The translations under genes and the position numbers were made by a program. A stretch of DNA of 64,000 nt from Bacteroidales bacterium (lineage in GTDB: Bacteria; Bacteroidota; Bacteroidia; Bacteroidales; CAIWKO01): the NCBI GenBank assembly GCA_035389045.1, contig DAOORA010000001.1, positions 9,458-73,457 on the forward strand, read 5' to 3'. Positions 3,826 through 21,182 of this stretch are shown here, in pieces (positions within the stretch are counted from its first letter, which is position 1; each line of letters starts with the position of its first letter). The notes under the pieces are model-generated. The model made no database searches. It saw nothing but the letters and a program-made list of their open reading frames with translations, and was not told the origin of the DNA.

Positions 3826-5400
3826 CTATTGGTTCACGTTGTGAAGATCCTTCAGCTTTTCCCACGGGCCCAGATCATATTTGCGTATCATCTGCCGGTA
3901 CAACTCTGCATCCTTATTCAGCTTTTTGATATGTTTGTGATAGCTGACCATAGAGAGCAAATGCGAGAATCCCATGTCTACGGCTACTTTTTTTTGCCTG
4001 ATCAGGGCAATCATATACATAAAGAATCTGCGTTTGTATGGTTCCGGACGGAAAACGAACTCATTCAACAGTTTGAGAAGCAACTTAATGATAAAGCCGG
4101 TGCCTGGCCTGCCATCATTGTAAGGCTTTATAAAATATCCGTCGCCAAAAAGTATTTTTGCTTTATAATAGAGGGATTCGTAAGCATACATTTTAGAGAG
4201 TGTTTCAAGGTATTTATCGAACAACGCTATCTGCGACATCTTATAATAATGGATGCATGGAAATAACCCGCCCATCATATCCGTATCTATATCATACATC
4301 CTGCCTTCGGCAGTAAGTCGCTTCTGCAATTCAGAACCAAAAGGAGCGCCAAGAATATTAAAATTGATGTACGACAATCCCGTCCGCTGCGTAAACTCGT
4401 ACAAGCGGTCGAATTCTTCCGGTGTATCATTATCAAAACCTATAACAAATGATGCGGTGATATGTATCCCGTGGGCATGGATCTTTTTGATCGCATCTTC
4501 ATAGATCAGCGCCTCACGGTTTTGTTTTTTCTTTGTTTCAAACAGGCTGCCGGCATTCAATGATTCAAAGCCGATGAGAATATTGAAACAGCCGGCATTA
4601 TTCATTTCCGTCAGCAAATCGTCTTCTTTTGCAATTTCGATGCTCGACATGCAGCCCCATGATATGTTGAGGGGCATCAGTTCTTTCATAAGTTCGTGGG
4701 CATAACGTTTATTAGCCGTCAGGTTATCATCCACAAACAGCATCTTCCTCACCGGAAGAGATTTGATCTCCTGCACCACATTAGAAATTTCACGGTAACG
4801 CATTTTGTTCCCGAACAAATTGGTGACAAGGCAAAACTCACACTTATAAGGGCAGCCACGCGATACCTGTATCCCCACCTGGAAAACTTTTTTCATATCC
4901 ACCAAATCCCAACGGGGAAGTGGTGTCTCTTTAAAGTCGCAATACTCGTGTGTGTCGTAAATTTTCTGAAGGCATCCCTGTTCATAATCCGCCAGGCATT
5001 TCCGCCACGAACCTTCTGCTTCTCCTATCACAATAGCATCGGCATGAAGAACTGCTTCATCGGTCATAAACGAAACGTAGGGGCCTCCGATAATAACTTT
5101 TGCTCCCCGGGATCTGTACCAATCGCCTATTTCGTAGGCTCTTTTAGCCGTGGTTGCCAGGGCTGATATGCCGACTATTTCGGGAATCTCGTCTGGCAGT
5201 GACTCCAGGTCTTCATCAATGATACGAACATCATATTCCGGCGGTGTAATAGCCGCAATCATAGGCATGGCCAGTGAAAGCATGAACTTCTTTTTACCCA
5301 TCATTTTACAGAGTTCTGTCTGCCCGTAATAATTCACAAACTTCTGTCCGGGTAAGACCAGAAAGATACGTTTTCTGCTGTAGGATATTCCGCCCGTCAT
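3826..5400 (-). CDS. B12-binding domain radical SAM protein
   Basis: CX3CX2C motif SRGCPYKCEFC. The N-terminal Rossmann-like region (IFLVLPG..., VIIGGPYVSF) is typical of cobalamin-binding class B radical SAM enzymes. Confidence 0.8.
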   Translation of the reverse strand: MTGGISYSRKRIFLVLPGQKFVNYYGQTELCKMMGKKKFMLSLAMPMIAAITPPEYDVRIIDEDLESLPDEIPEIVGISALATTAKRAYEIGDWYRSRGAKVIIGGPYVSFMTDEAVLHADAIVIGEAEGSWRKCLADYEQGCLQKIYDTHEYCDFKETPLPRWDLVDMKKVFQVGIQVSRGCPYKCEFCLVTNLFGNKMRYREISNVVQEIKSLPVRKMLFVDDNLTANKRYAHELMKELMPLNISWGCMSSIEIAKEDDLLTEMNNAGCFNILIGFESLNAGSLFETKKKQNREALIYEDAIKKIHAHGIHITASFVIGFDNDTPEEFDRLYEFTQRTGLSYINFNILGAPFGSELQKRLTAEGRMYDIDTDMMGGLFPCIHYYKMSQIALFDKYLETLSKMYAYESLYYKAKILFGDGYFIKPYNDGRPGTGFIIKLLLKLLNEFVFRPEPYKRRFFMYMIALIRQKKVAVDMGFSHLLSMVSYHKHIKKLNKDAELYRQMIRKYDLGPWEKLKDLHNVNQ

Positions 5401-5403
5401 AAC

Positions 5404-6513
5404 TTAAAAATAACGAAGTGTAAAACCGGCCTGCATAAATTTACTGACCTCGGTGACAAAGCTCAGGATCATATCGTTTTCATATAATTTCTCCTCTCTC
5501 ATAATTTTATCGAGGCAAATGAACACCATAGGCGGGCCAACATAGCCCATGTCATTCATCCTGGTATAGAGCGTTTCTTTTTTAATCCCCAACTGCCCGC
5601 ACTCCTCTATGATCATTTCAGCAATATGCTTTGAAGGAAAATTCACCTGAAAATATTTTAATGCGGAGAGATCAATGTGGTAAGTTTCGATCATGCGCTT
5701 CAATCCTTTAAAAAAAACCGAACCGTCTGCATCATGAAAATGCAGGCGTAACTGCTCGTTGAACATCTGTGCCAGGTGGTGATCGCCGTGTTCAAACTCC
5801 AGTCTGGGATTCTGCCAGTAGGCAGGGCGCCTGTTGAGCATGGCTGCCGGTTTATTACCTCCTACAGATTCCATGTATACATTTTCGACGAACAGCCCTT
5901 TTTGGACTTCAGCTTTCTGTAAAATCAATGCCCCTGCCCCGTCACACAAAAAATACCTTAAAAACAACTCTTCTTTGGTAAGTAAGGGCTGGTTGTAATA
6001 TTCTGCAATAAGTTCGGAAGAAGAAATTCCCGATGATACGACCAAAGCATTATCATACCTGCCGCAGCGTATAAACTCGTATGCCACCAGCAGCGCTTTA
6101 TAGGCCGAGGTGCAATTAGCATGAATTGAAATCTCGGAACACTCCTCAATGCCAAGCGCCTCCTGTATCCGCACGCTGGCTGTAGGCATCTGATGCTGAT
6201 GTGCGCTGCCATAGGCAATAAAGCTGATCTCCTGTGGTTTCAGCCCGGCCATGTCAAGAGCTTCATGAGCCGCTTTGACCGCCATGGAGACATTGTCTTC
6301 GGTAAATTTCCGGGTATCAGGGTCAATGGCATAATGATAATAGCCGATATCGAGCATTTCTTTCATCAGCGGCCTGATGCGGGAAAGCCATTTTGCCACC
6401 GGTGCAGGGGCATCTGTTATTTCCCCGAGGTAGCTGTCGGTTTCTTCAAAAGAAACCGGCCTGCCCGGCAAAAACCTCCCTGTTCCGGTTATTTTAACCC
6501 TGTTGAACGACAT
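5404..6513 (-). CDS. 3-oxoacyl-ACP synthase III (KASIII/FabH-like) family condensing enzyme
   Basis: N-terminus VKITGTGRFLPGRPVSFEE, candidate active-site Cys context IHANCTSAYKAL, thiolase-fold length of 369 aa. Confidence 0.65.
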   Translation of the reverse strand: MSFNRVKITGTGRFLPGRPVSFEETDSYLGEITDAPAPVAKWLSRIRPLMKEMLDIGYYHYAIDPDTRKFTEDNVSMAVKAAHEALDMAGLKPQEISFIAYGSAHQHQMPTASVRIQEALGIEECSEISIHANCTSAYKALLVAYEFIRCGRYDNALVVSSGISSSELIAEYYNQPLLTKEELFLRYFLCDGAGALILQKAEVQKGLFVENVYMESVGGNKPAAMLNRRPAYWQNPRLEFEHGDHHLAQMFNEQLRLHFHDADGSVFFKGLKRMIETYHIDLSALKYFQVNFPSKHIAEMIIEECGQLGIKKETLYTRMNDMGYVGPPMVFICLDKIMREEKLYENDMILSFVTEVSKFMQAGFTLRYF

Positions 6514-6732
6514 CGTTTATATATATTTTGCCTTTATTTGTATTGGAGTTTTACTAAGAAATAACGAACATAACGTATAAAAACTTATTTTACTCTATAC
6601 TTATTTTTATTGCCGGGACAAATTTACCAAAGATCAGCAACAACTTACAATAACTGACCGTTCTTTTACACATTTCTGTTCCCTGAACTTATACATTATT
6701 CATCACAGAATGACGATTCCTGATTCATGTCC

Positions 6733-7389
6733 TCACATATATTTTCCGATATAATAATTTCTCAGTTTTGGATTATAGTTTTTATATATTTTTTCAGCGA
6801 AATCAACGGCTTTTGCCATAACTTCCTTTCTCCTTACAATCTTATCCACAAGCCCTGTTTGCCGGGCATCCTGTGCGTTCAGGTTTTTTCCCGTAAGCAT
6901 CAGCTCGATTGCAGTTTTTTTATCCGTATAATCCGAAAGATATACAGAACCTCCGCAGCCCGTCATCAGGTTATATCCTGCTTCGGGAAATCCCATGATA
7001 ATATTTTCGGCAGCAATCCGAAAATGGCACGACATGGCCAGTTCCATGGCAGAGCCCAGGCATACTCCTTTAATAGCGGCTATTACAGGTATTCCGGCCA
7101 TGTAAAACCTTTTGAATGTGCGGCTGTTGGCAATATAAAAATCTCTGGCCTGATGCGTGTTTTCTCCGTCAAACGACAGCAGGTCGCGGATGTCCGCCCC
7201 TGAGGAGAAATGCCTGCCTGTTCCGCTGATTATGAGGGCTTTCAGACGTTCATCATGGAAGGCCATATCAGACAACTCGTGGATCTCATAGAAAAAAAGT
7301 TTATTCATACTGTTGGCCGGTGGGCTGTTCAGTTCAATAAACCCGATATGATCTTCGAAACGCCAGTTGATAGTCTGATACTTTACCAT
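6733..7389 (-). CDS. Enoyl-CoA hydratase/isomerase (crotonase) family protein
   Basis: GTGRHFSSGADI oxyanion-hole motif and crotonase-like length. 7-nt overlap with the upstream paralog. Confidence 0.75.
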   Translation of the reverse strand: MVKYQTINWRFEDHIGFIELNSPPANSMNKLFFYEIHELSDMAFHDERLKALIISGTGRHFSSGADIRDLLSFDGENTHQARDFYIANSRTFKRFYMAGIPVIAAIKGVCLGSAMELAMSCHFRIAAENIIMGFPEAGYNLMTGCGGSVYLSDYTDKKTAIELMLTGKNLNAQDARQTGLVDKIVRRKEVMAKAVDFAEKIYKNYNPKLRNYYIGKYM

Positions 7390-8132
7390 ATTTCGGATTT
7401 TCTCCTTTGCGCTTCCTCAAGTGCGAGTTTGCAGAACATTCTTGTTTCTTCATGCAGGGCTTCATGCAGGGGAAGTTTATTGGCATTGTGTATGGCCTGC
7501 ATGATCGAACAGATCACATTTTTGGGCTTGGTGCTGACCATATTCTTCAGATATTTCAATGAAGCTCCCAACACATCATCATCTGAAACATAATGTACAA
7601 TGTTATATTTTAATGCTTTTTCCGCATCAATGATATCGCCTGACAATAAAAGTGAAATCGCATGATGATCTCCTGACTGCTTCACCATGCGTGCAATACC
7701 GCCAAGTCCGGGCATCAGGCCGTGGTTTATCTCCGGGAAGGCAAAAAGCGATTTGGCGGATGCAAAGCGTATGTGACACGCCATGGCAATTTCGAGGCCG
7801 CCACCCAGGCAGGCGCCGGTAATGGCAGCTACGACTGGTATTTTCAGTCCAAAGATATGATCCAGCAGTTGTGATCCGGCTGTCATCTCTTTTGTCAAAA
7901 TATCAGCATCGCAGGCGGTTTCAAAAAGTTTTTCCAGGTCGGCCCCGGCAGAAAAATGCCTGCCCGTACCCGTAATGATAACACCTTTTATGTCTTCATC
8001 TTCTGCAATACTATTCAATTTGTCCACACTAATAAATGCTGGTGATGGCAGATAATTCTGCGGAGGATTGTTTATTCTGATGACAGCAATACACCCATTC
8101 TTTTCGACAACGACATTTGCAGTTTCTTTCAA
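7383..8132 (-). CDS. Enoyl-CoA hydratase/isomerase (crotonase) family protein
   Basis: GTGRHFSAGADL and ACLGGGLEIAMACH motifs. Confidence 0.8.
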   Translation of the reverse strand: MKETANVVVEKNGCIAVIRINNPPQNYLPSPAFISVDKLNSIAEDEDIKGVIITGTGRHFSAGADLEKLFETACDADILTKEMTAGSQLLDHIFGLKIPVVAAITGACLGGGLEIAMACHIRFASAKSLFAFPEINHGLMPGLGGIARMVKQSGDHHAISLLLSGDIIDAEKALKYNIVHYVSDDDVLGASLKYLKNMVSTKPKNVICSIMQAIHNANKLPLHEALHEETRMFCKLALEEAQRRKSEIW

Positions 8133-8527
8133 TTCATGCTGTTTTTGGTGAGTAAAACTTCATATTCGGGGGATATTCCGCAAGGTATCCTTTCACTGTT
8201 TAACGGTATTGTTTTTACGGTAGTGTGGGAGAGTTTCTGTCCGTTGTCAGCATTGAACATATATTGCTTAAAGACAATATAGGGGCCTGAGAACTCCACT
8301 TTGCTTTTTATCAGGATGTTATCAAACAAGCGGGCTTCTTTAGAATAACGGATATTGATTTCTGTTACTACCAATAAAATTTTTTCTGACTTTAATTTTT
8401 CGAGCAGACCTGTTTCACGCATGATTTCCCATCTTGCCTGCTCATAATAATTCAGATAAACAGCATTGTTCACATGGTCGTAGGAGTCCAACTCATAACC
8501 TCTGACGGATAAGCGATATTCGAACAT
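8129..8527 (-). CDS. Acyl-CoA/acyl-ACP thioesterase, 4HBT (YbgC-like hotdog) family
   Basis: YELDSYDHVNNAVYLNYYEQARWEIM matches the hotdog thioesterase signature. 132 aa. Confidence 0.75.
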   Translation of the reverse strand: MFEYRLSVRGYELDSYDHVNNAVYLNYYEQARWEIMRETGLLEKLKSEKILLVVTEINIRYSKEARLFDNILIKSKVEFSGPYIVFKQYMFNADNGQKLSHTTVKTIPLNSERIPCGISPEYEVLLTKNSMN

Positions 8528-8548
8528 TTTTTCTGGTAAGATATTATT

Positions 8549-8953
8549 TTAGAGTTTGGGGGCCAATCCGATGAGCTCATCCACCCTGGATTTCGCTATC
8601 TGCGACCATTTCGGGTCAATGAATCTGTTTCCATCCCAGGAAAAGTCCACACGGTAAAAATTTTCATTCATAAAAGTCAGTTTTGATTTTGCATCCGGTG
8701 TATGGACAATAAACATCATTTTGCCAGGGTCAATTGTAAAGGCGAAACCGATCAATGTTGCAAGAGGTGCGCAGAAGTTGGTCACTGAGGTTCCCGGGTT
8801 TTCGGCATATAATTCAGTAGCAATAACCACGGTGTGCTGTTCATTCTTTACAATCTTCAACCCGCAACGTGAGGGTACATCCCACTGTCCTTTAAAATCA
8901 TAAACCTCATCGAAATAATCCGAATTGATATCCTTGTTGAAATGTTTGATCAT
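8549..8953 (-). CDS. Hypothetical protein (134 aa) embedded in the biosynthetic cluster
   Basis: Clean ORF in the same orientation and tightly spaced with its neighbours. No motif recognised. Confidence 0.5.
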   Translation of the reverse strand: MIKHFNKDINSDYFDEVYDFKGQWDVPSRCGLKIVKNEQHTVVIATELYAENPGTSVTNFCAPLATLIGFAFTIDPGKMMFIVHTPDAKSKLTFMNENFYRVDFSWDGNRFIDPKWSQIAKSRVDELIGLAPKL

Positions 8954-8974: not shown

Positions 8975-10240
8975 TTACCTGTTAACTTTTTTACCGAAAG
9001 ATCTGTTGGCCAATTCTTCGCGAACAGGCTTATACGTGCCATTGGCAATTTCTTTCATGATCACTGTCCTGAAAAGTTTGAACATTTTTTCAGATTGTGA
9101 TTCATCTTTGTAAAAAGTATCCCATGCATAGTGATACAATTCCTGCAGGCGTTCAGGCGTCATATGCTTTGGTTGGATAACCACTTTTCCTGCATTGAAA
9201 TTGTTCCAGTCGTGATCAATGATCCTGTTCTGCCTGAGCAGGTCGTCATAAGCTTTCGTATGAGGAAAAGGTGTAAGAACTGTGAATTCGGCCAGGTCGA
9301 GGTTTATCTCCAGCAGGAAATCGATAAGGCGTTTGATATCATCTTCGGTATGGTCATCGGTTCCGAGCAGTATGGTGCCTTCGACGGCAATACCATGATC
9401 GTGGTAGCGTTTTATCCTGTCGCGTATATAATCGGAAGTGTCAAATACGGCCTGATAAACAAACCATGCACCGGCCTGTGCTGCCAGGTCGAGCACCTCG
9501 TCGTCATTTTCTATGGGATGTGAACACCAGTTTTTCTTAAACGGAATCATCTCACGGAAAAGGTCCAGTTCCCATTGTTTGTCCTGAGCAAGAGAATTAT
9601 CGACGATAAAAAGCCTGTTGTTATCAATGGTTGCCAATTCTTCAACGACGCGGTCAACAGGCCTGGGACGGAAACATTTTCCGCCGAGGTATGCCACTGC
9701 ACAGGGATAACAATTATACTTACACCCGCGTGAGGCATGAAACAGGTCGACCATGCGCACCCCTTTGTGATAATATTTCTCCTTATTGAGAATATCGCGC
9801 CGGGCAGGGCCTATAGTATTAATATCGGGATGAACAGCAAGATAATTATATACTTTCTGAAGTTTATCATTCCTGAAATCATCGAAAACTTTTTCGAGGC
9901 GGCCTTCTGCTTCTCCCAGAAATATGGAGTCGGCATATTCCAGTGTTTCTTCCGCATGGAGCATAGTAGAGATACCTCCGAAGATCACTTTTTTTCCGCG
10001 TTTGTGGTATTCCGATGCTATCTGCCAGCCGCGTTTTATCTGGCCGGTAAGCATCATCGAAATGCCAATAAAATCGGCATCATCATCAAAAGTAAGTTCA
10101 TCCACGTTCTCATCAACAAATTCAATATGAACATAAGCAGGCAGCGCTGCAGCCATCACAACCGGCCCGTGGGGCGGAAGGTTGAACGTGGTCTGCCCTT
10201 CGAGTTTTTCCCATTTAGGATAAATAAGTTTGAATTTCAT
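8975..10240 (-). CDS. B12-binding domain radical SAM protein (second copy)
   Basis: CX3CX2C motif SRGCKYNCYPC. N-terminal B12-binding-like region (VIFGGISTMLH). Confidence 0.8.
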   Translation of the reverse strand: MKFKLIYPKWEKLEGQTTFNLPPHGPVVMAAALPAYVHIEFVDENVDELTFDDDADFIGISMMLTGQIKRGWQIASEYHKRGKKVIFGGISTMLHAEETLEYADSIFLGEAEGRLEKVFDDFRNDKLQKVYNYLAVHPDINTIGPARRDILNKEKYYHKGVRMVDLFHASRGCKYNCYPCAVAYLGGKCFRPRPVDRVVEELATIDNNRLFIVDNSLAQDKQWELDLFREMIPFKKNWCSHPIENDDEVLDLAAQAGAWFVYQAVFDTSDYIRDRIKRYHDHGIAVEGTILLGTDDHTEDDIKRLIDFLLEINLDLAEFTVLTPFPHTKAYDDLLRQNRIIDHDWNNFNAGKVVIQPKHMTPERLQELYHYAWDTFYKDESQSEKMFKLFRTVIMKEIANGTYKPVREELANRSFGKKVNR

Positions 10241-10248
10241 ATGGTCGT

Positions 10249-11934
10249 TTATTCGTATTTAATAGTTTTCGATTTACAGGCCTCCATTCTTTTTTTCAGA
10301 AGTTCCCTGTCAGCCAGGTATGGTATTGATTTTTCCAATGCTTTCCGATAGTATTCAAGCGCTCTGCCATAACTTTTATTTTTATAATAATATTCACCGG
10401 CAAGATAATAAGGTTGATAAAATTCAGGATTGAGCCCTGTCATTTTTTCCGCATCACCTGCGTTTGCCTGTGTTATATCTGAATTCAGATGATCAACAAA
10501 CGCATCCCTGATTTTTTTATATTCCGCTATCTTGCCGGAATAATCAGACAACATTACTGAATCGGGCAGCAAAGATAATTCAAATTCATACATCTCGGTA
10601 TTTTGCATGAGACATTCTTTTTTCTGAAATATCTTATTTAAATCATAACAAACATAGGTTCCTGCCTGATACGGTGTTGTGGAAACCCAAACGAGGAGTT
10701 GTTCCGGTTTAAAGATCACAGAATGGTGGGCAATAAACTGATTCACTGCAAGTTCATTGGTATATCCTATTTTTTTATCATCCATTCCGTCGGGATTGCG
10801 CAACAATGCAGCAGCGCTGTTTTCATCCATCGGGCTGCTATTCCTGATCAACTGCTCCACCCTTTTAAAACGATATACGGTAGGTGTTTCATTCATTTGC
10901 ATTATATTCAACTTATCGGATGCATATTCAGTACTCTGAAAATGATTGGTACAGATAATATAATTTGAATCATTCTCAAACAGGACCGTCTTTTCAGGGC
11001 TTTTTTCGATGATGCAGGCTTTTTTATCTTTGGCTGAACCTATCATAAAAGATTCAGAAACAAAAACCTGGTAACGCCCGGCAATCCCGAAGGCCTCACG
11101 GATATTCCGGGCATATTGTAATATATGTTTGGCCACCAGCGACACCGGACATGCCGAATGTAAAGGTACCTGCGATTTGGCCGCGTTGATTGTCACGGTC
11201 AGCCCCTGGTCGTTCATGCCGGAAACAACGCCGGTCATCCCGCCCCAGGAGATCATCATGTAGTTATAACCCGAATCAGGTTTTACGAATGAGATTATTT
11301 TATCTTCAGCAAAATCATCGTTGATAAAAAAATCAAAGTTTCTGCCTACCAGCAGGGATGAGTCTTTTGATCGTTCGTCCCAGACGGCAAAAGATGTGCA
11401 GCCCACCAGGTGATAATTCTGCATCATGTGGCCTATGTCATGGGCAGCATGATAATTCAGCATCCGCTGATAGTTGCTTCCAATATATTTATATTGGTCA
11501 TCCGCATATTTAGAAACACCAAATATTTCCTGCAGGAATTCCGGCTTGATATAGGTGTCGATCTTTCTGTTAAAAATATCGATAATAAAATTCAGAAAAC
11601 GCCGGTAACTTTTTGATGGCACAAATTTGTTGATCTGCCGGACAAAGATCTTTTCCTGCTTTCGTGATAAGTCACGGGTAAGTTTGCCTGCGGCCAGACC
11701 TCTGTAATACGCATCACCTTCGGTATACAATTCATACAGTCCTGTCCTGCTTTTATGGAACCACGATTTTCCGCAATACACCAGGGAATCGCCGGAAGAT
11801 ACTGTTTTAAAGCTGCTGGTATCTGTATACGGCACCTGTGGAGGGTCAATGGTTTTACTAGAATTGATCAGTATTATGGCTATGACCGAGATCAAAGCGA
11901 CAGAAAAAAAAACTGTGATCAGTAATTTTTTCAT
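10249..11934 (-). CDS. C45-family (Ntn, acyltransferase/hydrolase-like) protein with N-terminal TM helix and C-terminal TPR
   Basis: LVGCTSFAVWD...GRNFDF nucleophile context. C-terminal YYLAGEYYYKNKSYGRALEYYRKALEK is a TPR. Paralog of 18545-20209. Confidence 0.6.
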   Translation of the reverse strand: MKKLLITVFFSVALISVIAIILINSSKTIDPPQVPYTDTSSFKTVSSGDSLVYCGKSWFHKSRTGLYELYTEGDAYYRGLAAGKLTRDLSRKQEKIFVRQINKFVPSKSYRRFLNFIIDIFNRKIDTYIKPEFLQEIFGVSKYADDQYKYIGSNYQRMLNYHAAHDIGHMMQNYHLVGCTSFAVWDERSKDSSLLVGRNFDFFINDDFAEDKIISFVKPDSGYNYMMISWGGMTGVVSGMNDQGLTVTINAAKSQVPLHSACPVSLVAKHILQYARNIREAFGIAGRYQVFVSESFMIGSAKDKKACIIEKSPEKTVLFENDSNYIICTNHFQSTEYASDKLNIMQMNETPTVYRFKRVEQLIRNSSPMDENSAAALLRNPDGMDDKKIGYTNELAVNQFIAHHSVIFKPEQLLVWVSTTPYQAGTYVCYDLNKIFQKKECLMQNTEMYEFELSLLPDSVMLSDYSGKIAEYKKIRDAFVDHLNSDITQANAGDAEKMTGLNPEFYQPYYLAGEYYYKNKSYGRALEYYRKALEKSIPYLADRELLKKRMEACKSKTIKYE

Positions 11935-13436: not shown

Positions 13437-16400
13437 AAAGCTTTTTTTTGTTTAATACAAACAACACATTGGAGGTAACCTTATTATCATCAATTATAGC
13501 CATCTCAAGCCCGGATTTGGCAACGACCTCACGGATCATACCGGCAGACAGGAATTGCAATTTGTTTTTACCCGTTTTGTTAAAGCCAAAGTTTGTAGAA
13601 AAAATTTCTGTCAACCTGGTCATCCCATGCCTTTTAACCAGATCCCGGTTGCCGTCTCTGATCAAAATCAACCCACCTTCGTTCAGGTTCGCGATGCATT
13701 GTTCCAACGTTTTTCTCTGGTCATAATGTTCCAGATAATGCAGCACATCGCTCAGGATAATGACGTCCTGATGCTCCATTTTATAACTCAGGATATCTTC
13801 ATGGGCAAAGGATACATTGGCGGGTTTTGACAAACAATGCGACGCCAGGGCGATTTTATCTTCATCAAAATCAATACCCTTAATGGTCCTGTCTTTTGAG
13901 ATCATGCCCAGCATCAATGATATGTAACCGTAACCACATCCGATATCCAGAATCTTAGCTTTCATTGGGATCAGGTTATTGTACAGCTGATAATTCTTTT
14001 CAATTTTTAGTTTGATCCTGGTATACCATTCGATCACAGGGCCTTTGTAAATAAAGTTCTTTATGAGAATATCTTTGTAATGGACAGGCTGTTTATAAAA
14101 GTCAAGGATTTCTCCGAATTCCTTCCTGTAAAGCCGGGTAAGGCCTTTGGCACGTTCCAGGTAGTCCGCACCGTATGCTGTGTTAGCGGGTATAATACGG
14201 TCCAAAAATTTAACAGTTATCGTGCTTCTCTTGCCAAACAGTTCACCCTTAGCCACATAATTGGCTGTTCCATGAATAACAACGGGCAATATATCAAGGT
14301 TCATACTCTCGGCAAGGTAAAAGGCGCCTTTGTGAAAACGATGTATCTGTTGATCCGGCGAACGTGATCCTTCGGGAAAGATGACCACAGAATATCCATC
14401 GCGGAAGTATTCCGTCAACTTTTCCTTTATCATATCGTAACCCGATGATGAGGGCAGGTAGCCGGACATGCGAATGAGAATCCCCCTGATCTTTGAATAG
14501 TACATTTTATCGTTGGTGAGCATGATTATTTTTGGGGTGAACATCAGCAGCAGGGGAATATCTATGCTCGACTGGTGGTTACATATGATAAGGGCAGGTT
14601 TTCTGAATGTCCCGGGTGATAAACCGATAAAACGTTTCTTGGTAAAGAACATCACATACATGGTGCTGCGGCTTACCAGCATCATCATGTAATGAAAAAT
14701 ATATTTTCTTTTTTTCCGGGTTACAGGCAGTATCTTCAGGACGGTCAATCCAAGCACCACGGTCAGAACACACCCTGCTAAATAGTATGAATAACATACA
14801 ATGGCATAGAACAAGCCAAAAAAAGTTACCGGAAATTTTCTGAATTTATTTTTTTTAATGATGAGCCAGCGGAACAGCACCGGCACCAGGGTATACGACA
14901 TGAACACCACAGACAACATACCGATAATGGTCAGCAGGGCAATGGAACGCAAAGCAGGATGCCGTGCCAGGATCAGCACTCCGATACCCACAAACATGGT
15001 GAACGCGGATAAAAATACGGCTGTTTTGTATGAATCCAGTATCCTGACACCTTTTTTGTATTCCTGCAACAATCCATCCATGATAAAGATACTGTAATCG
15101 TCGCCCAGGCCAAAAATAAACGCCGAGATAATGATACTGAAAATATTGAATTGCACATTCAGCAAACCCATGATGCCCATTATCCACACCCAGCTTATCA
15201 GCATCGGGACAAAGGCAATAGCAGCCAGTTCGATGCGGCCGTACGAAAACAACAGGAAGAAAAATACCAGCAGTGACGAGATCAGGAGAACGGTATTAAA
15301 ATCTTTATTGATGGAATCCATAAAATGAGACAACAGGCTGCCGGTCTCAACGATCACCGTATTTTCGGTCTCAGGAATGGCAGCAATCACTGCATCATGA
15401 TTACGGGGATTAATTTTTAACTGAGTGATTACGAAATTATCGTTGCCGGCCTGATTGACAAACTGTCCGGCAAAATTAGTTTTCAGATAATCGAAATCCC
15501 TTTTGCTGATGGCTGTGTATTTCCGGTCAATAACGACAAGAAAATCTTCAAACGCATCATCGGTGAAACCAAGTTTTTGACTGCCGAGTGTCAGGCAGGT
15601 TCTAATTTTTTCCTTACGGTCGTCATTCCAGAAGGATTCCCATTTTTGGATTTTTGCCTTTTGCATGGAATCCGAAAGCAGAACGGAGGATACACCCGAC
15701 ACCTGCCCGATAAGCTGTTTGTGCCTCAAATCAGCTATTTTACGGTTTAAGTTTTCATTCTTTCTGAGGGATTCGTCCAGCGTATTTCCTTTGCTGACAA
15801 TATACATTATCCGCTGCGAATTGCCGGATATCCGGTTCATGGTCTGCTCCGCCTGCTTCAATTTTTCCGAAACATAGCCGAGTTTGCTCAAATCGGTGTC
15901 AAAACTGGCTTTTCGGGCCATGAAAAGAAAAAAAACCGTCAGCACCACAATGCTTATGACGATATAACGGTTCCGGTCGAAATTATAGGATGAAATTTTT
16001 TCAATGATTTTCAGCAAGTGATTATCCGGTGAATCACTGGTTTGCTTTTTGATCCTGATGATAAAAGGCAGGAATATCAACGTAAACAATACGGAACCTA
16101 CCAGGCACAAAGCAGCGACCATTCCAAAATCTCTCAGCACCTGCGACCTGACAAACAACAGCCCCAGAAAGGCACCTATAGTGGTGATACTCCCTATGGT
16201 CAGCGGCGTGGAAAGGTCCTTTATCACCAGCCGCACCGAGCCAACATGCAGGTAATGCGTATAAAAATGTATGGAATAATTTAAAGCAATGCCCAGCACC
16301 AGCGACCCTGCTCCCAGCGCAATGAGCGAAATATCCGGATGTAACAGGAAAACCAGCGCCAGCGAAAACAAGCCTCCGAAAAGCACGGAAAGCAGCATAA

Positions 16401-17298
16401 CAAACAGGGATGACCTACTCCTGAAATACATTCCGAAAAAGATCAGCAGTATCAGCACTGCAATACCCATGGTCAGCATGAAATCCTTTTTCATTTGAGA
16501 GGCATTGGCCACCGAAGCGGCAACAGCGCCGAAGTATTGTATGCTGACGGATTGACTGCCGGCCTTTTTTGAGTTTTCTTCAATAATCTTATCCAGCCCT
16601 TTTATCAGCAAGGTGTTCTGATAGCTCTCGCTCGTCTCATTGGCCGACGTAATGAACATCAGCAGGGTTCTATTATCTTTCGAAAATATATGCCCGTTCA
16701 CAATATTATAATTGCTTCCGACACCCGAAAGGTTCAGTTTCTGAAGTGCAAATCTGCTGAGGCTGAGCGGATCACGAATGATGAACTTTTTCAAGAACAT
16801 ACCTGCAGGGGACACCAGCATTTTATAACTACCGGACAGCGTGGAATCTATATAGTCCGGATCTATCATTTTTTCTATCTGCAAATAATCCTCATCATCC
16901 AGAAAGAATGGCAGGTTATTCCAGATCACTTCATAGGTTCCGGACATTTGTTCTTCATTGATCTTATTGGTGACATCCCTGACCAGGGCAGGATATAACG
17001 AAGTTTTTATATCGCCTTCGAGATCTTCAGCACATGAAATAAGTTTTGCAGGATCAGCATGAGCCGAATCTTTATCACTAATAATAACAATAAGCTTGTC
17101 GTTAGCTTTTATCAACCTGAAAATATCCGTGACATTTTCCAGTTCTTTAGTCCTGGGCAAAAAATCAAGGATATCTTCGCTGAATCTGACGCGTCCGGCC
17201 AAAAAAACAAAAACAGCGACCAGCAGGAATAAGAAAGTAAAAAGCAACCACCTCCGTTTACTGAAGAAATCATATATTTTTAAAAACAAAAAACTCAT
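13429..17298 (-). CDS. Trifunctional fusion: MMPL/RND-like transporter + lysophospholipid (PlsC-type) acyltransferase + class I SAM methyltransferase
   Basis: About 800 aa of multi-TM sequence. Then HX4D motif NHQSSIDIPLL and FPEGSRS, then ILDIGCGYGYISLML (SAM motif I). Confidence 0.8.
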   Translation of the reverse strand: MSFLFLKIYDFFSKRRWLLFTFLFLLVAVFVFLAGRVRFSEDILDFLPRTKELENVTDIFRLIKANDKLIVIISDKDSAHADPAKLISCAEDLEGDIKTSLYPALVRDVTNKINEEQMSGTYEVIWNNLPFFLDDEDYLQIEKMIDPDYIDSTLSGSYKMLVSPAGMFLKKFIIRDPLSLSRFALQKLNLSGVGSNYNIVNGHIFSKDNRTLLMFITSANETSESYQNTLLIKGLDKIIEENSKKAGSQSVSIQYFGAVAASVANASQMKKDFMLTMGIAVLILLIFFGMYFRSRSSLFVMLLSVLFGGLFSLALVFLLHPDISLIALGAGSLVLGIALNYSIHFYTHYLHVGSVRLVIKDLSTPLTIGSITTIGAFLGLLFVRSQVLRDFGMVAALCLVGSVLFTLIFLPFIIRIKKQTSDSPDNHLLKIIEKISSYNFDRNRYIVISIVVLTVFFLFMARKASFDTDLSKLGYVSEKLKQAEQTMNRISGNSQRIMYIVSKGNTLDESLRKNENLNRKIADLRHKQLIGQVSGVSSVLLSDSMQKAKIQKWESFWNDDRKEKIRTCLTLGSQKLGFTDDAFEDFLVVIDRKYTAISKRDFDYLKTNFAGQFVNQAGNDNFVITQLKINPRNHDAVIAAIPETENTVIVETGSLLSHFMDSINKDFNTVLLISSLLVFFFLLFSYGRIELAAIAFVPMLISWVWIMGIMGLLNVQFNIFSIIISAFIFGLGDDYSIFIMDGLLQEYKKGVRILDSYKTAVFLSAFTMFVGIGVLILARHPALRSIALLTIIGMLSVVFMSYTLVPVLFRWLIIKKNKFRKFPVTFFGLFYAIVCYSYYLAGCVLTVVLGLTVLKILPVTRKKRKYIFHYMMMLVSRSTMYVMFFTKKRFIGLSPGTFRKPALIICNHQSSIDIPLLLMFTPKIIMLTNDKMYYSKIRGILIRMSGYLPSSSGYDMIKEKLTEYFRDGYSVVIFPEGSRSPDQQIHRFHKGAFYLAESMNLDILPVVIHGTANYVAKGELFGKRSTITVKFLDRIIPANTAYGADYLERAKGLTRLYRKEFGEILDFYKQPVHYKDILIKNFIYKGPVIEWYTRIKLKIEKNYQLYNNLIPMKAKILDIGCGYGYISLMLGMISKDRTIKGIDFDEDKIALASHCLSKPANVSFAHEDILSYKMEHQDVIILSDVLHYLEHYDQRKTLEQCIANLNEGGLILIRDGNRDLVKRHGMTRLTEIFSTNFGFNKTGKNKLQFLSAGMIREVVAKSGLEMAIIDDNKVTSNVLFVLNKKKLYE

Positions 17299-17327
17299 TC
17301 CGATTGTTTTACTGCCGGTAGTGGCTA

Positions 17328-18569
17328 TTATTGCTCACTGTTTGCCACCACATTATTATTTCTTCTCTTTTTTCTTCGTGCTATTTTAAGGATTATCAGT
17401 GTGACTAAGCCTGCTACCAGCGCAATAAATACTCCAAAAGTCACACTACCGAGGAGGTATTGAATAATATTGATTTTGATCGTAGCCAGCGATATCTGGG
17501 ATGAATAGGGTATATCAACTGCATTATGAGGAATTACCCAACCGCCGAATACATAACTCAGATAAATGATCAACGGGATATTCGGGGTGAGGCTGATATT
17601 ACTTGCCACCAGGGTGATCAGTTTGTTAAGCCGGAATAACATGGCCAGCAACACCGCCACCACCATCTGCCAGCCCCAAATAGGAGCCACACCGATAAAA
17701 ACGCCAAGCATCACCGAAAATGTGATTTTGGCATCCGAGTCGGTATTCTGAATGATGTTTTTCTGAAAAAACTCTTTTACATTTTTTTTGTTGAGTAAAC
17801 TGATAAATCCAAAAGGCCGGAAAATAAGCACCGCCAGAATGAACAGCACGATGTTCAGCAGCGTGATCCTCAAAAAATCGGCAAACGGCCTGAAATGACT
17901 TACCCGTTCATTTTTAGGAGGATAATAAACGCTGACAGGCATGGGGATGACAGCAATCCTTTTCCATGCTGAACGTACCAGCACCTCGACCTCGAACTCA
18001 TATTTGCGCCCGAAAAAACGCTTGTTATGCAGCAAAAACAAAGGATAGGAACGAAAACCCGACTGCGTATCCGGGAGTTTGACGCCCGTATCGATGTAAA
18101 ACCAGAAATTTGAAAAACTGTTACCGAAGCTGCTTGCCCCGGGGATACCTTCCTGCTTCATGTTGCGTGAGCCGACAATGACCGCTTCCGGGTTTTCCGT
18201 AATTTTTTCAAGAAACAAAGGCAGGTCTGAAGGCAGATGCTGTCCATCGGCATCCATTGAAATTCCGTAATCAAAATCATGCCCGTAAGCATACTTTATA
18301 GCTTTTCGCAATGCGTAGCCCTTACCCTGGTTTTTCTCAAAATGAATACTATGTATTCCCGTGAAACCTTCGAGTATTTTTTTTGTCCCATCCGTAGAGC
18401 CGTCATTGACCACAATAATATTCCGTGTAAACGCAAGGGTTTCAGAGATCACCTTCCCTAAAGTACCGGCATTGTTGTATGCCGGTATGATCACACAACA
18501 CCTTAATTTATCAAACATTTCTATGTATTCGGTATTTCCGGGCATTAGTTTGGTGTTCTGTTTTCGCAA
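17328..18569 (-). CDS. Family 2 glycosyltransferase fused to a DUF2062-like membrane domain
   Basis: VIIPAYNNAGTLGKVI...VVNDGSTDGT and SMDADGQH (DxD). C-terminal GVFIGVAPIWGWQMVVAVLLAMLFRLNK. Confidence 0.8.
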   Translation of the reverse strand: MRKQNTKLMPGNTEYIEMFDKLRCCVIIPAYNNAGTLGKVISETLAFTRNIIVVNDGSTDGTKKILEGFTGIHSIHFEKNQGKGYALRKAIKYAYGHDFDYGISMDADGQHLPSDLPLFLEKITENPEAVIVGSRNMKQEGIPGASSFGNSFSNFWFYIDTGVKLPDTQSGFRSYPLFLLHNKRFFGRKYEFEVEVLVRSAWKRIAVIPMPVSVYYPPKNERVSHFRPFADFLRITLLNIVLFILAVLIFRPFGFISLLNKKNVKEFFQKNIIQNTDSDAKITFSVMLGVFIGVAPIWGWQMVVAVLLAMLFRLNKLITLVASNISLTPNIPLIIYLSYVFGGWVIPHNAVDIPYSSQISLATIKINIIQYLLGSVTFGVFIALVAGLVTLIILKIARRKKRRNNNVVANSEQ

Positions 18570-20209
18570 AATTTCATTTTCTTTTTTATCTCCTCCCTTT
18601 CTTGTACGGTGGGAATTTCTTTCCGAAGGGCTGTACGATAGTATCCGGCTGCTTTTACATAATCCTTTTTGTTATAAAAAAAATTTCCGGCAACGCTGTA
18701 TGACAGGTAATAATCGGGATTCAGGCCGGTAAATCCGTCGATCTCCTCCTGAGAAACATCAAAGTTTCCGGGTGTATCCGAAATTTTCTTTTTTAGTTCC
18801 TTGAACCGTTCAAAATCCTCAAATCCGCCGTTGTCCAGGAAATTATCATGTACGATAGCCAAATCCTCCTTAATGATGGTGTCGCCATCCTGAAAATCCT
18901 CTGCCCTGCTGAAAACCTCGTGAAGATCATAACAAATGAACTCGCCCAATCCGAATTCACCGGCCGATATCCACATCTTCAGCTCCACTGGATTAAATAC
19001 CACCGAATGATGAGCCAACAACTGGTTGACGGTTTTTTCGTTCCCGTTACCAATGGATACATCGCCCAGGCCCTTCCTGTCGCGCAGTATTTCCACCGCA
19101 GCCTTCACCGATAATTTCGGGTGGCTTGCCAGAAGTTCTGCCGTTCTTTTGTAACGATACATGGATGCGCTTCCTTCAATATGTTTCAGATTTATGGGAT
19201 CGTTTTTTAAGGCCCCGGACTGGAAATGGTTCGTGCAAATGATCTGCTCCGTCCCGGGATCAAACAATTCGGTCTGGTAGGGCGTTTTTTCAATGATCAG
19301 CGCCCGGTTTTCCCTACCGGAACTCACGAGAAAAGATTCGGAAACAAATATCTTACGTTTTTTTGCGATTTCAATAACTTCATCAATAGTAGACGCATAC
19401 TGGAGCATCTCCCTGATGAGTATGGTAACCGGCGTGGCTGTTTTGGCCATAAGCTTTGATTTTGCCGCATTCACCGTTATGGCCAGTCCTTTGACGTTCA
19501 TGCCGGAAACCGTGCCGATCAAAGCGCCCCATGTTATCATCACAAATCTATGACCTTTATCAGGGGCATAAAAAGTTATTATTTTCTCTTTACAGAATTC
19601 ATCGCCGACATAGAAATCGAAATTACGAGCATGTATGATCTGTTCGTTTTCAGTGCGACCACCCCGCGCAACAAAAGAGGTACACCCCACCAGGTTCATA
19701 TCCTGAAGCATATGCCCAATATCGTGGGCTGCATGATAGTTAAGCACTCTCATATAATTAGGGCCGATCAGCCTGAAATCTTTTGAAGCCGAAAGCGACA
19801 CTCCGTAGATCTCCTGGTCGTATTCATTGCCGATGTATTTTTTCAGTTTTCTGTTGATCCATGCCACCACATACTTCAGAAAGCCAAGGTAAAAACTGTT
19901 TTTGACGATGGCTTTGATTTCGGAAATAAAGATCTTTTCCTGGGTATAGATCAGTTTTTCGGTCAGCCTGCCGTTGACCACCCCACGTTCAAAAGGGGCG
20001 CCGGCCACATACATTTCGTATAAGCCGTGTTTGTTCCTGTTCAGCCAGTTTTTACCAAGATGCACAACAGAGCCGGAACTTGTGACCGTGCGGCTCATCA
20101 TATCCGTATCCGGGACATCAGGCGGAACCTTTATCACCATTACTGCAAACAACGCAACAATAAAACCAACGATAAGTATAGATCCCAGTATAATATATAG
20201 TCCTGTCAA
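18545..20209 (-). CDS. C45-family protein with TM helix and C-terminal TPR (paralog)
   Basis: LVGCTSFVARG...ARNFDF and a C-terminal TPR (NFFYNKKDYVKAAGYYRTALRK). Collinear with 10249-11934. Confidence 0.6.
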   Translation of the reverse strand: MTGLYIILGSILIVGFIVALFAVMVIKVPPDVPDTDMMSRTVTSSGSVVHLGKNWLNRNKHGLYEMYVAGAPFERGVVNGRLTEKLIYTQEKIFISEIKAIVKNSFYLGFLKYVVAWINRKLKKYIGNEYDQEIYGVSLSASKDFRLIGPNYMRVLNYHAAHDIGHMLQDMNLVGCTSFVARGGRTENEQIIHARNFDFYVGDEFCKEKIITFYAPDKGHRFVMITWGALIGTVSGMNVKGLAITVNAAKSKLMAKTATPVTILIREMLQYASTIDEVIEIAKKRKIFVSESFLVSSGRENRALIIEKTPYQTELFDPGTEQIICTNHFQSGALKNDPINLKHIEGSASMYRYKRTAELLASHPKLSVKAAVEILRDRKGLGDVSIGNGNEKTVNQLLAHHSVVFNPVELKMWISAGEFGLGEFICYDLHEVFSRAEDFQDGDTIIKEDLAIVHDNFLDNGGFEDFERFKELKKKISDTPGNFDVSQEEIDGFTGLNPDYYLSYSVAGNFFYNKKDYVKAAGYYRTALRKEIPTVQEREEIKKKMKFCENRTPN

Positions 20210-20402
20210 GATGCCAAATTTTACCGCAAAATTAACCCAATTTTTGTATTGATAAAATCATAATAGCCATAAAGCATTTAAAACAGATATCTGCATAGCC
20301 GACAGCAGCGCAATCAAAAGAGAAATAAACGAAACTGTGTTACCGATTACCGGCATCCTGAAGAACTGCAAAGGCGGTATTATTATATGGTCAGGAATAA
20401 AA

Positions 20403-21182
20403 TTAAACGCTGTGCGGCTCGACGGAAGCTTTTATCACGCCATATTCTTTTCGCATTTCGGTCATCACATTATGGGTGAGTTCCTGGTAGGTATTGCCAT
20501 ACAGGGGGGTATTGACTTTTACAGGATCCAGAAATTTCACAACAGCGATGCCGTTTTTGAAAAAAAACCATTTCTTTTTCAGGATATTTTCGGAATAATA
20601 GATCACCACCGGCTGAATATCGAGATGAAGTTTTTCTGCGAGATAAAAACCTCCTTTATGAAATCTACCGATCTTCTGATCGCGATAAAGAACTCCCTCA
20701 GGGAAAACGAGCAGGGAACACCCCATATCCACAACAGGTTTCAATTGCTTTGCCAGTTTGCCACGATCTTCATATATGGAATAAAAACCGATATATTTTG
20801 TGATAAAAAACTTAGCCCATACATTATTGTGCCAGTTATTATTCAGCACCCTGACAGCAGGGGTCAGCGACAAGGTAAGCGGCACATCAATAAACGACTG
20901 GTGGTTGCATACAAGCAGAGAAGGATGTGAAAAAAGGTCATTTGATTTATTTACATATCTAACTTTTATGTTAAAATGTGTTTTGAGGATGAAGCGGGCA
21001 TAAAACGTTAGCAGGCGGGTATAAACGGTCTGTGCCGATTTTTTCATATTTGAAAAAGGCAAAGGCACCAACAATGAAAAGAACTGGCTGGTAATCATAA
21101 AAATGAGGAAGGAAATCAGTCCCCGTAATCCTATCCACAGTTGTATGAACGGTTTGATACTCATTTGTACCTTTTTCTGCAA
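20403..21182 (-). CDS. Lysophospholipid/1-acyl-glycerol-3-phosphate acyltransferase (PlsC-like)
   Basis: HX4D motif CNHQSFIDVPL and FPEGVLYRD. Start codon uncertain. Confidence 0.7.
   Translation of the reverse strand: MQKKVQMSIKPFIQLWIGLRGLISFLIFMITSQFFSLLVPLPFSNMKKSAQTVYTRLLTFYARFILKTHFNIKVRYVNKSNDLFSHPSLLVCNHQSFIDVPLTLSLTPAVRVLNNNWHNNVWAKFFITKYIGFYSIYEDRGKLAKQLKPVVDMGCSLLVFPEGVLYRDQKIGRFHKGGFYLAEKLHLDIQPVVIYYSENILKKKWFFFKNGIAVVKFLDPVKVNTPLYGNTYQELTHNVMTEMRKEYGVIKASVEPHSV

Follow-up and report, generated by a model that had tools for sequence, protein, structure and literature searches.

The DNA analyzed here is a stretch of 64,000 nucleotides (hereafter, the window) from contig DAOORA010000001.1 of an uncultured, anaerobic Bacteroidales bacterium (GCA_035389045.1), and its positions 3826-21182 are occupied by 13 co-oriented open reading frames (ORFs) on the minus strand, which make up an operon-like block of ~17 kb and are designated g1 to g13 in the order of transcription, from high to low coordinates. 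It represents a compact variant, specific to its lineage, of a large family of gene clusters in anaerobic Bacteroidales that is related to the flexirubin and aryl-polyene (APE) clusters and, more loosely, to the "ladderane-type" clusters for type II fatty acid synthesis (FASII); the conserved signature enzyme of the family is the radical S-adenosylmethionine (SAM) protein g7. Domains were assigned by Pfam and NCBIfam, and both the coordinates and the domains agree with an earlier note, made from the sequence alone, that had described 13 co-oriented minus-strand genes here. The minimal gaps that it had also described were found for most gene pairs, with intergenic distances of -25 to +29 nt, the exceptions being g1-g2 (193 nt) and g11-g12 (219 nt).

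The signature enzyme, g7 (8975..10240), combines a radical SAM core with an N-terminal B12-binding-like Rossmann domain. Its CX3CX2C motif (C173/C177/C180) is invariant in 13 sequences, and more than 6000 homologs were found at E<=1e-10, the best 120 of which reach 73% identity or more throughout and originate from Bacteroidales, Lentimicrobiaceae, and related metagenome-assembled genomes. A genome scan placed g7 in more than 505 species, and its carriers include Tannerella forsythia ATCC 43037, Draconibacterium, Rikenellaceae, Prevotellaceae, Muribaculaceae, and Paludibacter. For comparison of gene neighborhoods, all ORFs were called and clustered in 80 fetched g7 loci (referred to by L numbers), across which g7 is 70-93% identical, and the recurrent families were annotated; 41 of the loci have full 10-kb flanks. 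The second radical SAM protein, g13 (3826..5400), has a CX3CX2C motif at C183/C187/C190 and Pfam matches to Radical_SAM (53 bits), B12-binding (31 bits), and DUF4070. Both had been called B12-radical SAM enzymes, of which the radical SAM part was borne out, while the Pfam B12-binding scores (28.7 bits for g7 and 31.0 bits for g13) lie just under the gathering score of 32.1 bits; PF02310 is among the precomputed annotations of nearly all g7 homologs. In the AlphaFold2 (AF2) model of g7, which is of moderate confidence overall (pLDDT 68, pTM 0.71), the N-terminal Rossmann domain is confident, and the best Foldseek match was AprD4 (TM 0.70), followed by MgmA, TsrM, TokK, CysS, and MiaB, so that g7 is predicted to have a class-B-type architecture. 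AprD4 is a diol dehydratase, and therefore methylation and cobalamin use should not be assumed for g7. HpnJ, HpnR, BchE, PhpK, and other curated radical SAM families were rejected for g7 and g13, all scores being far under the cutoffs (the best NCBIfam matches of g13 were HpnJ, PhpK, and BchE), and so was TIGR04072, the lipid radical SAM family of ladderane clusters (49 and 66.6 bits, respectively, against a cutoff of 360).

A gene of the g13 type follows that of the β-ketoacyl synthase III (KASIII)-like enzyme g12 in L001-L005, L037, and L084 and is absent from L007, L008, L017, and L047. Since cargo genes of the type IX secretion system (T9SS) come directly after the KASIII gene in L007 and L008, g13 is regarded as an accessory gene of the KASIII module. 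In L084, an otherwise different locus, a 522-aa enzyme of this type (B12, radical SAM, and DUF4070) again follows the KASIII gene. The family is rich in distinct B12-type radical SAM paralogs (g7, g13/DUF4070, 446-aa, 452-aa, and 471-aa types), at least three of which are possible per locus (L036, L038, L054, L080, L085, and others), often together with a desulfoferrodoxin-like gene and a gene for tyrosine ammonia-lyase (TAL).

The obligate neighbor of g7 is g8 (8549..8953), a soluble orphan protein of 134 aa, whose gene is separated from g7 by 21 nt in the window and stands directly after it in 68 of 82 loci, or in 88% if only the 41 full-flank loci are counted. No Pfam or NCBIfam match was found for g8. 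Its AF2 model (pLDDT 83, pTM 0.79) consists of three strands, a helix, three strands, and a helix, a fold for which there was no PDB match at E<=1e-3, with all query-normalized TM scores at or below 0.35. Profile searches placed g8 in a large superfamily that has neither a name nor a Pfam model (1351 representative clusters at E<=1e-3) with a conserved NPGTS(V/I)T motif, and one Cys and one Ser are invariant. The domain is sometimes found at the C terminus of proteins of 260-380 aa (P0338, P0412, P0331, P0399, and P0406); P0338 and P0412 carry a SWIM-zinc-finger-like N-terminal module, and the remote g8-domain proteins look GC-rich and Actinobacteria-like. These SWIM-like fusion partners say nothing about lipids and do not reveal the role of g8.

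Such a pair could be read as a radical SAM enzyme and its substrate, in the manner of ribosomally synthesized and post-translationally modified peptides (RiPPs), acting on a protein or peptide, or g7 could be a housekeeping enzyme that merely lies beside lipid genes. The unusual conservation of g7 (at least 70% identity across families), the small size of g8 with its invariant Cys and Ser, and the unrelated fusion contexts of the g8 superfamily would fit this. It is nevertheless quite improbable, because in 80 loci and at least five arrangements the neighbors are always genes of lipid/polyketide biosynthesis and export, because g8 is predicted by AF2 to be a well-folded 134-aa domain and not a leader-core peptide, and because the pair is without an accompanying peptidase or RiPP recognition element. 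One paper on RiPP mining of Bacteroidales deals with unrelated radical SAM clusters.

Downstream of g8 lies a module for a thioesterase (TE), two proteins of the enoyl-CoA hydratase (ECH) family, and a KASIII-like enzyme (TE-ECH-ECH-KAS3), in which g9 is always the first gene. The g9 protein (8129..8527) is a hotdog (4HBT) acyl-CoA thioesterase of the YbgC/FadM type (53 bits with Pfam 4HBT_2; 69.3 bits with NCBIfam TIGR00051, the cutoff of which is 68.7). The next gene, g10 (7383..8132), encodes a full-length enoyl-CoA hydratase/isomerase (crotonase; Pfam ECH_1, 134 bits), in which both catalytic Glu positions are present by inspection, and g11 (6733..7389) encodes a second crotonase of 218 aa that is short at the C terminus (ECH_1, 114 bits over profile positions 3-194 of 251), a short length that is conserved in its family. 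The best solved relatives of both are β-oxidation-type hydratases (3pea, crotonase, EchA8, PaaF, and ECHS1).

The paired crotonases had been taken as typical of β-branching, for which g12 would have to be a 3-hydroxy-3-methylglutaryl-CoA synthase (HMGS, or HCS) and the crotonases ECH1 and ECH2, together placing a β-methyl branch on a polyketide or lipid. A thiolase-fold enzyme with two crotonases does resemble an HCS cassette superficially, but the 60 PDB matches listed per crotonase are β-oxidation-type hydratases/isomerases, with no CurE/CurF or PksH/PksI-type structure among them, and g12 scored only 36.6 and 25.8 bits on HMGS models with cutoffs of 244 and 360. In addition, the donor acyl carrier protein (ACP) and the decarboxylating ketosynthase (KS) are absent from the window. 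The HMGS scores and the β-oxidation-type crotonases largely refute a β-branching cassette, which we consider highly improbable.

The KASIII-like protein g12 (5404..6513) had been compared with DarB of dialkylresorcinol (DAR) formation, and its nearest family is indeed StlD/DarB: g12 matches NF005293 over its full length (residues 7-362 against profile positions 2-371), and its best PDB match is StlD (5gk0, E 1.4e-19). However, the scores are far under the cutoffs (123 bits against 450 for NF005293 and 96 bits against 550 for the DarB model NF053539), and the equivalents of the catalytic His, Asn, and Glu154 are missing. In the comparison with 5gk0, the catalytic Cys (StlD Cys126) aligns to the Cys of HANCTS, which is invariant in 10 family members, while StlD His302 is replaced by Asn (QVNFPS), the triad Asn (GNTGSAS) by Tyr (MGYVGPP), and Glu154 by Gly (VSSGISS). 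All three substitutions are invariant in the family, as are the motifs HANCTSAY, QVNFPS(K/R)H, and MGY(V/A/L)GPP in the 10 members; the alignment with 5gk2 has Ala at the His302 position. His302, the triad Asn, and Glu154 of StlD were reportedly found by Mori and co-workers in 2016 to be essential. The number of g12 homologs is 1445, and the best 120 are at least 67% identical. As judged from its sequence, g12 has a StlD/DarB-like fold with a different catalytic constellation, Cys-Asn-Tyr instead of Cys-His-Asn, which makes a role as a decarboxylating and elongating KS unlikely.

Elsewhere in the family, the module is longer and consists of TE, ECH, an ORF of 115-121 aa, ECH, KAS3, a ~216-aa ORF in L083, a 3-hydroxyacyl-CoA dehydrogenase, and a FabF-like KS, and it adjoins genes for ACP, phosphopantetheinyl transferase (PPTase), and malonyl-CoA:ACP transacylase (MCAT) (ACP-PPTase-MCAT), an AMP-ligase, an O-methyltransferase (OMT), and other B12-type radical SAM enzymes, whereas the window has TE-ECH-ECH-KAS3 only. 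An ORF of 115-122 aa without a Pfam domain lies between the crotonase genes in most relatives (L007, L008, L017, L047, L083, and L085) and is absent from the window, L003, L004, and L037.

The composition of this module raises the question of whether g9-g13 might be catabolic and shorten a side chain in a β-oxidation-like manner, e.g., from 4-coumaroyl-CoA to 4-hydroxybenzoate, to supply an aryl starter instead of building the lipid. A 4HBT-family thioesterase, two hydratases, and a thiolase-superfamily enzyme, to which relatives add a 3-hydroxyacyl-CoA dehydrogenase, could be expected of such a pathway; g11 weakly matches p-hydroxycinnamoyl-CoA hydratase/lyase (92.7 bits; cutoff, 276), and TAL and AMP-ligase genes occur in related clusters. 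However, TAL, ligase, and dehydrogenase are absent from the window, there is no KS or ACP here to extend an aryl starter, and we know of no KASIII-fold enzyme that acts as a thiolase. A catabolic role is therefore unlikely.

The upstream half of the block encodes functions of anchoring, export, and tailoring. The first gene, g1 (ORF 20403-21182; 20403..21164 from the likely ATG start at 21164), encodes an ApeD-like membrane acyltransferase of the PlsC/lysophospholipid acyltransferase (LPLAT) type (Pfam Acyltransferase, 51 bits) with the HX4D (H88) and FPEG motifs and N-terminal hydrophobic segments. The g2 protein (18545..20209) is a membrane-anchored C45 protein (N-terminal nucleophile type, acyl-CoA:6-aminopenicillanic acid acyltransferase-like) with one N-terminal transmembrane (TM) segment and the nucleophile motif GCTSF (residue 175); it scores 80.7 bits with Pfam AAT and 208 bits with NCBIfam C45_proenzyme, for which the cutoff is 85. 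The g6 protein (10249..11934) is a second C45 protein (AAT, 74.7 bits; C45_proenzyme, 216 bits against the same cutoff; GCTSF at residue 178) with a signal-anchor-like N terminus. Of the two C45-tetratricopeptide repeat (TPR) proteins that had been described, both are C45 proteins, and the C-terminal TPR of g6 (residues 501-535) matches consensus TPR structures, while that of g2 is visible by eye and was not detected by Pfam. Between them, g3 (17328..18569) is a family 2 glycosyltransferase (GT2) with a DAD motif, a DUF2062 membrane domain, and several TM segments (Glycos_transf_2, 95 bits; DUF2062, 72 bits), a counterpart of ApeJ and the Flx glycosyltransferase (GT). The product of g4 (13429..17298; 1289 aa) is a fusion of an MMPL/RND exporter, a PlsC domain, and a SAM methyltransferase (Pfam MMPL, Acyltransferase, and Methyltransf_31/25/23; NCBIfam HAE3/HpnN-like), with ~14 hydrophobic segments, H908-X4-D, FPEG974, and SAM motif I at residue 1116; the full-length fusion is kept in L003, L007, and L008. 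The LPLAT, GT, and RND/MMPL set for anchoring and export is thus present in g1, g3, and g4 with its motifs intact. Finally, g5 (11934..13436) is a soluble CrtI/CrtD-like FAD-dependent desaturase/oxidoreductase (Pfam NAD_binding_8 and Amino_oxidase) with an intact GSGLGG motif, and members of its family are found in 49% of the full-flank loci, often duplicated. Its identification as a true CrtI/CrtD was rejected (NCBIfam CrtD, 105 bits against a cutoff of 550; no close solved relative).

No genes for ACP, KS, chain length factor (CLF), ketoreductase (KR), dehydratase (DH), TAL, AMP-ligase, LolA, MCAT, or PPTase were found in the 64-kb window by Pfam scans of its large ORFs and tblastn with representatives of 32 associated families, in agreement with the earlier note, which had reported no ACP, KS, KR, or DH genes. 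Specifically, the three ACP families of the relatives had no window match at E<1e-3, and the scanned ORFs had no PP-binding domain; ketoacyl-synt, KS, or CLF was found neither by Pfam nor by tblastn with the KS/CLF representatives from relatives. The window has no homologs of the short-chain dehydrogenase (SDR)/KR family or of FabA/FabZ, crotonases being there instead, and none of Lyase_aromatic (TAL) or AMP-binding, both of which were found in relatives, or of the LolA family, which occurs in 20% of them. Neither Pfam nor NCBIfam annotates any of the 13 proteins as DarA, no explicit comparison with a DarA reference having been made, and only g8, with its orphan fold, is without an assignment. 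The core genes were not found in the 10 kb downstream of g13 either, ~6 kb of which lie past the left edge of the window.

A gene for an ACP, a KS/CLF, or an AMP-ligase lies within 10 kb of g7 in 35 of the 41 full-flank loci. The other six comprise the window, L003 and L008, which are of the window type, as well as L057 and two reduced loci of T. forsythia. Since the window is among these six together with the two full-flank loci that are closest to it in architecture, the absence is an inherited trait of this architecture and not an accident of the assembly. The missing carrier-protein and ketosynthase genes, which had been expected to lie elsewhere or not to be needed, are therefore a genuine and consistent trait of the window architecture.

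The family as a whole is modular. Its frequent members in the full-flank loci are a BtrH-like protein (59%), GT2, ACP, and an unknown protein of 159 aa (56% each), a sulfotransferase (51%), and MMPL, AMP-ligase, and an outer-membrane CarboxypepD_reg protein (49% each), and they are followed by KS (34%; KS/CLF in 17 of 41 loci), C45 (27%), TAL, KR, and an LpxL-like acyltransferase (20-22%), and the KAS3 module (12%). The g7-g8 pair is near-universal, g1-g6-type genes are found in approximately half of the loci, g9-g12 occur in ~12%, and g13 is rarer still. The combination of g7 (at least ~70% identity), an adjacent g8, and genes for lipid biosynthesis or export within 10 kb occurs in 36 of the 41 full-flank loci and is seen in the window.

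At least five architectures can be distinguished in the set. Type I has the order ACP-KS-CLF-EamA-LolA-FabA-GT2-MMPL-CrtI-g7-g8-esterase-AMP-ligase, and type II has GT2-MMPL-CrtI-C45-g7-g8, followed by an outer-membrane protein (OMP), OMT, ABC2, the 159-aa protein (u159), BtrH, ACP, sulfotransferase, and AMP-ligase. In type III, genes for TAL, KR, KS, ACP, an LpxL-like acyltransferase, and another B12-type radical SAM enzyme lie on one side and ACP-PPTase-MCAT on the other. The window is of type IV, (PlsC-C45)-GT2-MMPL-CrtI-C45-g7-g8-TE-ECH-ECH-KAS3-(rSAM2), where rSAM2 is the g13-type gene, and in type V, of Rikenellaceae, TE-ECH-ECH-KAS3 is inverted beside a module of ACP, BtrH, and AMP-ligase genes, as in L017 and L047. 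The window architecture is found in ~10 of 82 loci (L001-L008 and L037; the inverted form in L017 and L047). The sub-blocks are thus co-conserved in a modular rather than uniform way, although the full order from the first C45 gene (C45a) to g13 recurs in L003, which is from a different species, with 46-93% protein identity and with the g2 ortholog upstream of GT2. Parts of this architecture are shared by L004-L008 and L037, the cluster starting at GT2 in L007 and at CrtI in L037. The downstream flanks of the window-type relatives are unrelated, which defines the 3' boundary of the cluster. In the two loci of T. forsythia, a cultured periodontal pathogen, L066 (ATCC 43037) and L034 (OH1426), g7 (at 10001-11263, 70-71% identical) lies near BtrH-like and ABC transporter genes, in L034 together with the 159-aa gene, and g8, CrtI, MMPL, and KS are not found within 10 kb.

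The acyltransferase, GT2, MMPL, and CrtI-like genes had been likened to the tailoring and export half of flexirubin or aryl-polyene clusters, and this likeness was confirmed by the relatives, which carry TAL, KS, CLF, KR, DH, ACP, AMP-ligase, and LolA genes beside the same genes. Because TAL, KS/CLF, KR, DH, ACP, aryl-acid ligase, LolA, GT, and exporter genes stand beside g7-g8 in relatives, the family is flexirubin/aryl-polyene-like. No characterized member or known product of this Bacteroidales family was found in the literature, and neither was a close homolog in a characterized pathway, such as would have spoken against the unusual product that the earlier note had proposed.

The main rival explanation follows from this likeness, namely that the block is the tailoring and export half of a split cluster, together with a dialkylresorcinol-like module, and that the core genes for a polyene act in trans from elsewhere in the genome. 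Most relatives do have the core genes beside g7-g8, flexirubin consists of a polyene acid in ester linkage with a resorcinol made by DarB and needs an anchoring/export set, and the modules shuffle freely between genomes, with some g12 modules lying apart from g7. On the other hand, no core gene was found in the window or in the ~6 kb beyond its left edge, L003, L007, and L008 have the same compact layout with unrelated flanks, and types II and V are without KS/CLF/KR/DH within 10 kb, from which it follows that a polyene is not obligatory for the family. A split cluster is thus possible and yet rather doubtful.

The best reading of the block, which we hold tentatively and at somewhat less than an even chance, is that it may encode a CoA-fed, ACP-independent route to an exported lipid tailored by radical SAM enzymes. 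Characterized members of the crotonase, YbgC/FadM thioesterase, KASIII, C45 IAT, and PlsC families use acyl-CoA. All thioester-handling families in the block have such members, and a CoA-fed pathway independent of ACP is therefore the most economical. The hydrophobic moiety would be built from acyl-CoA intermediates of primary fatty acid metabolism without a dedicated carrier protein, with g10 and g11 interconverting 3-hydroxyacyl-CoA and 2-enoyl-CoA. The Cys-only KASIII g12 would join or transfer acyl units without decarboxylation, possibly by a head-to-head condensation leading to a cyclohexanedione-, resorcinol-like, or branched product, and g9 would free the product. Tailoring independent of O2 could be performed by g13, by g7 with its partner g8, and by g5, and might comprise C-methylation, C-C bond formation or dehydration, and desaturation or aromatization. 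The PlsC domains (g1 and g4), the C45 proteins (g2 and g6), and the GT2 (g3) might link the product to an anchor, either a glycerolipid or a glycolipid, and the methyltransferase domain of g4 might methylate it, while the MMPL domain of g4 would export it towards the outer membrane.

Several points weigh against this CoA-fed route. As the gene search covered the window and ~6 kb beyond it, the rest of the genome may contain core genes that act in trans. With the StlD residues His302, Asn, and Glu154 lost and scores so far under the cutoffs, the chemistry of StlD/DarB cannot simply be carried over to g12, and the 3-hydroxyacyl-CoA dehydrogenase, the FabF-like KS, and the 115-121-aa ORF of the longer modules are missing here. 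Cobalamin use by g7 and g13 is putative, as the Pfam scores are sub-threshold and the AprD4 that the modeled g7 resembles is a dehydratase and not a methylase. If its signal-anchor-like N terminus made g6 periplasmic, this would not fit dependence on acyl-CoA. Furthermore, g1 is the least secure member of the cluster, and its conservation was not seen in relatives: in a comparison that did not cover the L003 sequence upstream of C45a, a standalone g1 ortholog was not seen, and all 34 of 34 g1 hits fall inside the MMPL fusion gene.

A further-reaching proposal is that g7 and g8 form a new two-component radical SAM system acting on lipids derived from fatty acids or polyketides ("ketoacyl" lipids) and shared by more than 500 species of anaerobic Bacteroidales, cultured ones among them, and that the window-type cluster would combine it with the Cys-only DarB-like condensing enzyme and a second radical SAM enzyme to make a new class of outer-membrane glyco- or glycerolipid wholly from acyl-CoA, without ACP or an elongating KS; this is, in our view, a doubtful possibility. 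The g7-g8 pair is the most interesting element of the family. The lipids on which radical SAM enzymes are known to act are almost all isoprenoids. In a 2026 review of lipid-modifying radical SAM enzymes, which does not mention Bacteroidota, the ladderanes and the product of Jaw5 are the only ketoacyl lipids for which such action has even been proposed; if true, g7-g8 would be the third case by that count. The enzyme is embedded in lipid/pigment clusters of more than 500 species, which include gut, rumen, oral, and digester organisms as well as T. forsythia. The window variant indicates that the signature pair can work without ACP or KS nearby, which narrows the possible substrate, and the 13 genes in 17 kb are a small target for heterologous expression. 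An outer-membrane lipid as the product would have implications for envelope biology and for oxidative-stress or host-interaction traits of anaerobic Bacteroidota, and it would be an anaerobic counterpart of the flexirubin and aryl-polyene pigments.

The upstream boundary of the cluster is tRNA-Arg(ACG) (21308..21382, plus strand; ARAGORN and Rfam), past which the GC content drops from 41-45% to 30-38%, and the downstream boundary is formed by T9SS cargo genes on the opposite strand, which continue past the window edge in the contig. The window encodes five Por_Secre_tail proteins, which fits Bacteroidota. No riboswitch (cobalamin or SAM) or other RNA element was found near the cluster, the only RNA genes being two tRNAs. 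A TAnnTTTG motif (the Bacteroidetes-type -7 promoter motif) was noted by eye upstream of g12 within 6514-6732 (TAAATTTG) and upstream of g1 within 21165-21300 (TATTTTTG); the former suggests a possible internal promoter for g12-g13. Directly beyond the tRNA, a block of low GC content (30-38%) extends over 21600-37500 and contains a RhuM-family gene (24366-25391; PADLOC candidate PDC-S05), a 703-aa AAA_5 ATPase with a 429-aa partner (26544-29937), and a type I restriction-modification specificity subunit and methylase (29941-32879). It looks like a defense-type island inserted beside the tRNA; a second copy of the tRNA-Arg 3' end, as would be expected at the far border of such an island, was searched for and not found. 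The junction of tRNA and island is flanked by short ORFs at 21410-21553 (plus strand) and 21675-21953 (minus strand), whose N termini are GIY-YIG-like by eye (YVYVIRS... and WYVYRAINN...). At 57948-58601 (minus strand), 37 kb from the cluster and among T9SS cargo genes, lies a homolog (38% identity) of the "u203" family (~205 aa, without a Pfam domain), which recurs beside g7 clusters in 23 other loci.

Among known systems, the flexirubin clusters of Chitinophaga pinensis (flx) and Flavobacterium johnsoniae (Schoener et al. 2014, PMC3992019) are from the same phylum, Bacteroidota, and share with the window a phospholipid/glycerol acyltransferase, a glycosyltransferase, a predicted exporter, and a DarB-type KASIII; flxP-U have been assigned to lipid anchoring and export (PMC3992019). 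In contrast, the window has no TAL, 4-coumarate-CoA ligase (4CL), KS, KR, DH, ACP, LolA, or recognized DarA, its g12 lacks the catalytic His, Asn, and Glu of StlD/DarB, and it adds two radical SAM enzymes, g8, two C45 proteins, and two crotonases in a host that is an anaerobe. The APE clusters of E. coli and Xenorhabdus (Johnston et al. 2021, PMC8253772), in which ApeD/J/K/M (LPLAT, GT, thioesterase, and RND) have been proposed to anchor and export the product, share ApeD-, ApeJ-, ApeK-, ApeM-, and ApeB-like functions with the window, three of which (ApeM, ApeD, and ApeB) are fused in g4. The window differs in being without the KS (ApeC/O/R), ACP (ApeE/F), ligase (ApeH), DH (ApeI/P), KR (ApeQ), and Lol-like proteins (ApeL/N), and the published APE gene table is without radical SAM or CrtI-like genes.

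The DarAB(C)/StlCD pathway provides both the best family and the best solved relative of g12, which is nevertheless far under the cutoffs and has Asn, Tyr, and Gly at the key positions. DarB and StlD condense a β-ketoacyl thioester with an α,β-unsaturated acyl thioester, and "DarA-less" DarB homologs are thought to do different chemistry (PMC6836626). The bartoloside and proposed microcarbonin clusters are of the DarB type, are without ACP, and are fed by primary metabolism, and such ACP-less DAR clusters also hold glycosyltransferases and exporters, as does the window (PMC6836626). In the FASII clusters of anammox bacteria and Desulfotalea (Rattray et al. 2009, PMC2649909), fatty acid genes are combined with radical SAM, phytoene-dehydrogenase-like, phenylacetyl-CoA-ligase-like, GT, and membrane-protein genes. 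These ladderane-type clusters, to which the model TIGR04072 is linked, carry the same kit as the type I relatives and are likewise found in anaerobes, but in another phylum; their B12-type radical SAM enzymes are not orthologous to g7 and g13, and the window is without FabF paralogs and ACPs. Finally, AprD4, MgmA, TsrM, TokK, and CysS share with g7 the N-terminal Rossmann (B12-binding-like) domain and the radical SAM core with CX3CX2C, at an identity of only 14-17%, and the g8 partner that characterizes g7 is found in none of these matches.

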